Positions 3,001-6,000 of a DNA stretch of 12,893 nt are shown here, piece after piece. The stretch's first letter is position 1, and every line of letters begins with the position of its first letter. The position numbers were made by a program. The DNA is taken from IMG/VR virus record IMGVR_UViG_2778261214_000016, positions 1 through 12,893 of that record. One strand, given 5' to 3'. Source of the stretch: a virus. Lineage: Duplodnaviria > Heunggongvirae > Uroviricota > Caudoviricetes.

Positions 3001-6000
3001 TGATTAAAGCGGTGCGTTTTTATGAGCAGGTAAAGCGTGAGAATCCGCCAGTCGAAACCGGAGCATGGAAAGACGCTGTTGACTGGGTGCTCAAAGAGGC
3101 TTGCCAGTCTGTAAACATTGGCATCAAAGGAGAGTGATATGGCGTTAACACACCGCGAACTCTGTCAGATTGCGTACAAGTTCCTTAAGCGCAACGGGTT
3201 CAAGGTTTGTTTTCATGACCGCTTTATAGCTGTAACCAGTACCGGAGAACAGCCAGATGCTATGGGATTCAGAAATTCAGCATCATGCCTGATAGAGGCG
3301 AAGTGTTCTCGTGCTGACTTGTTGGCAGATAGAAAAAAGCGTTTTCGTAAAAATCCGTCTCTTGGAATGGGCGACTGGCGATTCTTTATTAGTGAGCCGG
3401 GAATTATTTCAATTGAGGATTTACCACCTGGCTGGGGATTACTTCACGTTGTTAACGGAAGAGTACGGAAAGTACATGGGTGGCCCAAGGGTAATTGCTG
3501 TTGGGGTAAACCTGACGATAAGCCATTTACTGGAAATAAGCAGGTTGAATGCGATTACATGTTATCTGCATTAAGGCGCATGGAGTTGAGAGGGCACCTT
3601 AATGAAATATATGACGGTGTAATTGTTAATAAGAAAGAAGGAAACGCGGCATGATCACTATTACCAAAGAGCGACTACTGACAATCAAGCAGTGGCGCGA
3701 AACATACGGACCTGGTAGCAACGTTGTACTGCCAGCAGAAGAAGCGGAAGAACTGGCACGAATTGCTCTGGCATCGCTGGAAGCAGAACCAGTTGCTTAT
3801 ATTTTCAAACATCCGGCCGGGAAATTATTCTGGGCTTTAACGGATGAAAGCAATAAAGAGCAACCGGACGTTATTCCTGTTTATGCTGACTCACCTGCGC
3901 CGGTTGTGCCGGATGAAATAGACGTAAACGATGTACCAAGGGCGGTGACATATTTCAAGACACACAGAGATTGTTACGCAGATGGCTGGAACGCCTGCCG
4001 CGCCGCCATGCTTCAGGGTAGCCAACCTGTAAGCCAAACTTACAAGTTTCCAGTTAATACACCTTGCCAGGATGCGCCAGCCCATATCTGGCTGCAAACA
4101 GCTGGAGTATGGCCAGAAGATGGCGAGTTAAGCGAATTAACGTGGTGCAGCCACAATCAGCACCATGATGACACGCTATATGTTCGAGCTGATTTGGTAA
4201 ATGGCAATTCTCCGGTAACTCCGGATGGTTGGATAAGCTGTAGTGAGCGAATGCCGGACGACAGGCAGGAGGTGAATCAATGAGCTGGCCTGATGCAATC
4301 GTAACTCTGGGGGTGGTCTTCGCAGCAGCGTTTGTTGTGTTCTCGATTTGTCGATGGGGATAACCACATGTTCGCTTTGATTCAACGCGGTCAGATATAC
4401 ACGGACAGAGCTGGATACCCCGTGGTGATTACTCGCATCACTGAGCACTCAGTGTTCTTTCGACGGATGGACGGACGATCCGGGCGGGTACGCATTGGTG
4501 AGTTAAACTGCCTGTTCGAACATATTGACCACCAGGAGTACCGCAAAATTCTCGCGAACACTGAGCAGGAAAAGCACCTGAAAAAATTACGAGCCATAAA
4601 AAGGAAGTAAAGAATGAATAAAGCATTTGAACGATGGGTCCACCAGCGTTACGGCAATCGCTATGACCTGACGCGAGATGTTGACGGCTTCTACTGTCGT
4701 GAAGTTGTGAAGCGAATGTTTGAAGTGTGGTGCCACTGCCGTGGATGAAAATTTTATGAGGTTGGCATGCAGACAATCATCTATCTGATAACCCCCAGCA
4801 AATGGTGTACGGAGAGAGTCCTCATTGCATCAACAGGGCTAAAGCCTGGCACCATTGAGCGGGCAAGAAGAAAGTCATGGATGCAGGGAAAAGAATACCG
4901 CCATTACGCTGTAGAAGGTGATCCGGGGCACTACAGTGAATGCCTGTACAACATCGAAGAAATTATGCGATGGATCGAAAACCAGAAACAACCAGGTGCC
5001 AAAAATGCAAGTTCCGGTTAACCTGTTAATGCTCCTGGACGTCTGGGAGGTTTAATGAGTAACGCATCATACCCGACAGGCGTTGAAAACCATGGAGGAT
5101 CACTCCGTATATGGTTTCACTATAATGGCAAACGTGTCAGAGAAAACCTCGGTGTTCCTGACACAGCCAAAAACCGGAAGATCGCTGGTGAACTTCGCAC
5201 TTCCGTTTGTTTTGCAATCAGAATGGGGAGTTTCGACTACGCCGCGCAGTTCCCTAATTCCCCTAACCTGAAACACTTTGGTCTGGGAAAAAGAGAGATA
5301 ACCGTTAAGGCACTTTCGGAAAAATGGTTGGACCTTAAGAAAATTGAGATTTGTGCGAATGCACTTAACCGTTACCAGTCAGTAATTAAAAACATGTTAC
5401 CAATGTTAGGTGAAAAAAAACTGGTTTCATCCATAACAAAAGAGGATTTACTTTTCGTAAGGAGAGATTTGTTGACCGGTTACCAAAAGCTTTCTAATGG
5501 AAAGACTTCTTCCATAAAAGGGCGCTCAGTGGTCACGGTAAACTACTATATGACAACCATAGCTGGAATGTTTCAATTTGCAACAGATAATGGTTATACC
5601 TCAGGAAACCCATTTAACGGTCTGGCTCCCTTAAAAAAGTCCAAGGTAAAACCAGATCCTCTCACCCGTGACGAATTTATTCGTTTTATTGAGGCTTGCC
5701 GTCATCAACAAACAAAAAACCTGTGGATTCTCGCTGTATACACGGGTATTCGTCACGGGGAGTTGGTATCGCTGGCATGGGAAGATATAGACCTTAAAGC
5801 AAGGACTATAACCATCCGTAGAAATTATACAAAACTTGGCGAATTCACTCCACCAAAAACCGATGCAGGCACCGGAAGGACAATTCATCTGGTTCAACCA
5901 GCTATTGATGCTCTTAAAAGCCAGGCGGAAATGACCATGCTTGGAAAGCAACATTCTGTAGAGGTGAAGCAGAGGGAATATGGGAGAACTGCTGTGCATA

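Follow-up and report, generated by a model that had tools for sequence, protein, structure and literature searches.

We find it rather probable that a 171-aa protein encoded in the early-left operon of a lambdoid prophage is a small phage-borne, metal-dependent PD-(D/E)xK endonuclease, likely directed at DNA structures or lesions and made after prophage induction. Its family is, as judged from sequence, a separate and unmodelled sister family of MmcB rather than a part of PF06319 (DUF1052), and is more distantly related to archaeal Hjc-type junction resolvases. The window analysed here is a stretch of DNA of 12,893 nt; the features discussed below are listed in Table 1.

A chance reading frame can be dismissed for the nuclease ORF, which is a real gene: it has 324 close homologues, the family comprises 3,293 clusters at 50% identity (E ≤ 1e-3) in metagenomic phages, and of 5,426 complete E. 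coli genomes 931 (17%) contain the gene at a nucleotide identity of ≥95%. A single E. coli genome may have up to six copies; the carriers include O157:H7 Stx prophages and P1-like phage-plasmids. The ATG at 3139 was taken as the start codon instead of the TTG at 3118 because homologues begin at the same Met. The Shine-Dalgarno sequence falls within the final codons of the upstream Ead/Ea22-like gene (stop at 3135–3137) and is identical in phage P7 and in strain DEC9B. All motifs described in the sequence-only reading are present in the ORF (E37-x-P39-D40, E53-A-K55, S57-R58-A-D60-L61, C120-C121-W-G and E137-C138-D-Y), and the ATGA coupling to the next ORF was confirmed as well.

Table 1. Features of the nuclease gene and its surroundings (positions in the window)
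Feature	Position	Strand	Remark
Shine-Dalgarno AAGGAG	3127-3132	+	6 nt 5′ of nuclease ATG; read from sequence
Nuclease ORF	3139-3654	+	Intact, 171 aa, begins MALTHREL
Codons E37-Q-P39-D40, 'PD' half of catalytic motif	3247-3258	+	Just before β2 of model
Codons E53-A-K55, '(D/E)xK' half of catalytic motif	3295-3303	+	End of β3
Codons S57-R58-A-D60-L-L-A-D64-R-K-K67, helix signature common to MmcB family (SSRADFQxDxKW)	3307-3339	+	MmcB alignments
'Cys-rich tail' C120, C121 ... E137, C138	3496-3552	+	Only E137 family-conserved; cysteines lineage-specific
ATGA stop/start overlap	3651-3654	+	Nuclease TGA 3652-3654, next-ORF ATG 3651-3653
Mosaic accessory protein, EaA/DUF551-family relative	3651-4283	+	210 aa, DUF551 core missing
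DUF551 remnant, residues 193-208 (WISCSERMPDDRQEV)	4227-4274	+	Profile positions 1-16 of 68
Excisionase	4767-5021		PF06806, E 1e-28
Integrase	5055-6341		xis-int region

The family corresponds to PHROG 631/9263 and has no Pfam, NCBIfam or PADLOC model. Its members are annotated everywhere as 'unknown function' or 'hypothetical', and are unnamed in Pfam, NCBIfam, PHROGs and PGAP; literature searches found no published experiments on either phage MmcB-like proteins or this PHROG family. When the 171-aa protein alone was searched, it had no match in Pfam at E ≤ 0.1 (PF06319, with a gathering score of 22 bits, included) and none in NCBIfam, and phmmer against the PDB returned nothing useful. The link to MmcB emerged only with profiles and structure, not in direct sequence searches.

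The AF2 model of the protein (pLDDT 82.4, pTM 0.77) has the α-β-β-β-α-β core of the PD-(D/E)xK fold, with elements in the order H5-18, E23-25, E41-45, E48-54, H58-64 and E80-85. A Foldseek search of the PDB gave a sole significant match, 3dnx (E 9.2e-6, TM 0.67), a fragment of which matches PF06319 (MmcB-like) at E 3.8e-32. Comparison of the family profile with an MmcB alignment by hhalign covered residues 12–116 with 98.0% probability (E 1.5e-13), and the probability was 94% when the family profile contained close homologues only. The family profile used in an hmmsearch against the PDB also reached 3dnx (E 1.1e-4), and Hjc at E 0.06; BLASTP of the protein against SPO1766 showed 32% identity over 74 aa (E 5e-4). 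Homology to MmcB was established against a genuine family member, by profile-profile alignment as well as by structure. As to PF06319 itself, 14 of 50 relatives had matches, all weak and sub-threshold (best E 2.9e-4). The MmcB-like PD-(D/E)xK assignment made in the sequence-only reading thus held for fold and homology, and not for PF06319 membership by HMM.

Conservation was scored over 50 diverse relatives, 33–56% identical to the window protein. The catalytic D...(D/E)-x-K set, placed on the β2/β3 hairpin, is conserved as is characteristic of the superfamily: D40 is found in all 50 relatives, and E37, E53 and K55 in 49 each; position 27 is acidic in 48. In the alignments D40 corresponds to MmcB D39 and Hjc D42, and E53-A-K55 to MmcB E53-C-K55 and Hjc E55-M-K57. 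The helix that follows β3 has the family form S-R-x-D-F-x-x-D-x-x-K, with D60 kept in 50/50, D64 and K67 in 49/50 and R58 in 43/50 relatives. This is the MmcB signature E-x-K-S-S/x-R-x-D-F-x-x-D-x-K, as can be seen by comparing E53-A-K-C-S-R-A-D-L-L-A-D-R-K-K of the window protein with ECKSSRADFQxDxKW of MmcB. In helix 1, where Hjc has a conserved catalytic glutamate besides its D/E/K residues, H5 is present in 48 of the 50 relatives, and at position 7 (E7 in the window protein) 28 of them have E and another 10 have D.

Metal binding by the C-terminal CCWG...ECDY segment, which had been suggested earlier, was rejected on conservation. E137 is invariant (50/50), while C120 and C138 occur in three of 50 relatives each; at the C121 column in the alignment of relatives, Cys does not rank among the six most frequent residues, and position 121 is a Cys in 3 of 32 close homologues. 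The relatives show no conserved set of three to four Cys/His ligands in the C-terminal tail. Outside the tail, most relatives have V or I in place of C9 and C50.

The ORF downstream had been described as having a DUF551-type C-terminus. Residues 193–208 do match DUF551 (PF04448), with a score of 23.8 bits, nominally over the 22-bit cut-off, for a match that spans profile positions 1–16 only; the rest of the 68-position domain is missing. Residues 1–208 are 98% identical to DUF551 proteins of 261–263 aa, and these full-length relatives have ∼53 more residues; the core of the domain has been deleted in frame. The AF2 model of this ORF is uninformative (pLDDT 36.6, pTM 0.23). The ORF occupies the same place 3′ of the nuclease gene as upf89.5 in P7 and eaA in JL22. 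As a conserved two-gene module, the nuclease and DUF551-like pair was rejected: among about 78 viral loci, only the 16 closest have a DUF551-like neighbour, and the genes flanking nuclease relatives form 43 clusters on the downstream side and 46 on the upstream side. We infer that the DUF551-stub protein is an incidental neighbour and not a nuclease subunit.

A relative of the nuclease was found on 483 viral contigs. The family is located in early, replication or integrase-proximal regions of phages, where genes of relatives adjoin those for SNF2 and DEAD helicases, C5 methylases, a primase zinc ribbon, a DnaC-like loader, SSB, NinB and NinG; more distant members adjoin DnaB with DUF3987, HD with Rep3, or an integrase. 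These neighbours are too variable to fix a pathway for the nuclease.

The window copy lies just 5′ of xis-int, and the position in an accessory region beside these genes, claimed from the sequence, is borne out by the excisionase and integrase. No promoter-like site was seen on the + strand at positions 1–6500. A closely related copy of the same prophage in DEC9B also encodes RusA; the phage therefore does not depend on the nuclease to resolve junctions, and the idea that it is the sole Holliday junction resolvase was down-weighted. Three sister genomes have a nonsense mutation in the nuclease gene and an IS element inserted exactly at the ATGA overlap; the lysogen can therefore do without the nuclease.

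Judging from the general mechanism of the superfamily, Mg2+ would be bound by D40 and E53 (with E37 or D27), and K55 would place the attacking water for the cut of the phosphodiester bond. The nuclease would be expressed after prophage induction, alongside other genes of DNA metabolism and accessory genes, because its gene has no recognizable promoter of its own or strong terminator and stands head-to-tail with its neighbours in the early-left operon, which continues into xis-int. Most likely it would recognize a DNA structure or lesion (a branch, a stalled fork or a crosslink), not a sequence, and would serve phage DNA replication, recombination or repair. This suggestion draws on the nearest relatives (MmcB with its mitomycin C and cisplatin tolerance, and Hjc acting on branched DNA) and on the neighbours in distant phages; two steps of inference lead to the substrate, since the literature found reports no nuclease assay of MmcB.

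A different role in the same accessory region, that of an anti-defence or superinfection-exclusion nuclease degrading incoming foreign DNA, a nucleic-acid signal of host defence or a defence component, appears unlikely. Many integrase-proximal accessory genes do act in this way, and the gene is situated in the variable region by xis-int amid Ead/Ea22-like and DUF551-type accessory genes. Its spread is patchy, with copies 96–99.8% identical in unrelated phage types (the P1-like P7 and JL22, and Stx lambdoids), and in DEC9B BREX and a phosphorothioate-dependent restriction gene are found a few kb past the window, an indication of defence pressure at the locus with no direct link to the nuclease. 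However, neither the nuclease ORF nor the ORF downstream matched a PADLOC-DB 2.0 defence model at E ≤ 1, there is no conserved partner gene, and no promoter of its own points to the expression in the lysogen that exclusion requires. Besides, the nearest characterized relatives are repair or junction enzymes, and in distant phages the gene is hosted by replication modules.

The same near-identity of copies in P1-like and lambdoid phages, together with the up to six copies per E. coli genome, the many different flanks (43 downstream and 46 upstream clusters) and the tight packing of the gene against its neighbours in all cases, would also be explained by a selfish free-standing endonuclease of the homing type, spreading by cutting alleles that lack the gene. 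We regard this as improbable: the protein is modelled as a bare catalytic domain of ∼160 aa with no recognizable sequence-reading domain, and what moves as a unit in enterobacterial phages is a three-gene cassette (Ead/Ea22, nuclease and an EaA-like gene), not the nuclease alone. Lambdoid phages are normally mosaic, through recombination at the boundaries of genes, and this accounts for the pattern without homing. Nor is there much to commend a protein that has the nuclease fold and acts by binding DNA or another protein without cutting, such as a regulator or a host-enzyme inhibitor. Inactive PD-(D/E)xK homologues are well documented (PMC3424549), yet E37, D40, E53, K55 and the acidic residue at position 27 are kept in 48–50 of 50 relatives at 33–56% identity, a pattern that is the signature of selection for catalysis.

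The endonuclease reading, with its defined catalytic tetrad and its firm link to the MmcB/Hjc branch, makes a testable enzyme of a widespread 'hypothetical protein', and the catalytic assignment supplies the mutations D40A, E53A and K55A. It is a useful annotation that reveals no new kind of system. A more specific version, to which we give little credence, is that an MmcB-type 'unhooking' nuclease, encoded by the temperate phages of gut Enterobacterales themselves, lets the induced phage genome replicate through interstrand crosslinks or bulky adducts. Colibactin has been linked to prophage induction. If the unhooking version were true, the phage would bypass lesions of mitomycin-like or colibactin-like genotoxins, the very agents that trigger induction, and would encode an enzyme of lesion repair whose class of substrate has yet to be described for phage nucleases.

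Among known systems, the closest is MmcB (PF06319, formerly DUF1052; COG5321), represented by the structure of SPO1766 from Ruegeria (Silicibacter) pomeroyi (3dnx) and by genetics in Caulobacter crescentus. MmcB is chromosomal, mostly α-proteobacterial and SOS-regulated (PMC3424549, PMC9578287), and in Caulobacter, the only case in which such a role is known, it provides, according to a review summary, SOS-regulated tolerance of mitomycin C or cisplatin damage (PMC9578287). In contrast to chromosomal MmcB, the window family is phage-borne (Enterobacterales and metagenomic phages). The two proteins are alike in size (about 150–170 aa, single domain) and have in common the catalytic D...ExK, the post-motif helix S-R-x-D-F-x-x-D-x-K and an 'LP..GL' strand, at ∼25–32% identity; the window family has a conserved basic insertion of seven residues (KKxFRxxPxxGMG) that MmcB lacks.

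Archaeal Hjc (PF01870; 1hh1, 4tkk, 1ob8), one of the archaeal Holliday junction resolvases to which DUF1052 was first linked (PMC1189080), has the same PD-(D/E)xK core, and the D/E/K residues of the family align with its D42/E55/K57. Weak matches to Hjc were found in 32 of 50 family members; the window protein itself showed neither membership by the PF01870 HMM nor close structural similarity. Some phage proteins have already been named 'MmcB-like DNA repair protein' (in Acidovorax phage ACP17, Dickeya phage JA13 and several uncultured viruses in BFVD). They have the same fold as the window protein (Foldseek E 3e-7 to 5e-4) at 15–21% identity, and they reach the PF06319 name, whereas the window family does not. 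With the link to the MmcB/Hjc branch, thousands of diverse, E. coli-tractable relatives are added to the little-studied MmcB family, and they could help show what MmcB-type enzymes cut.

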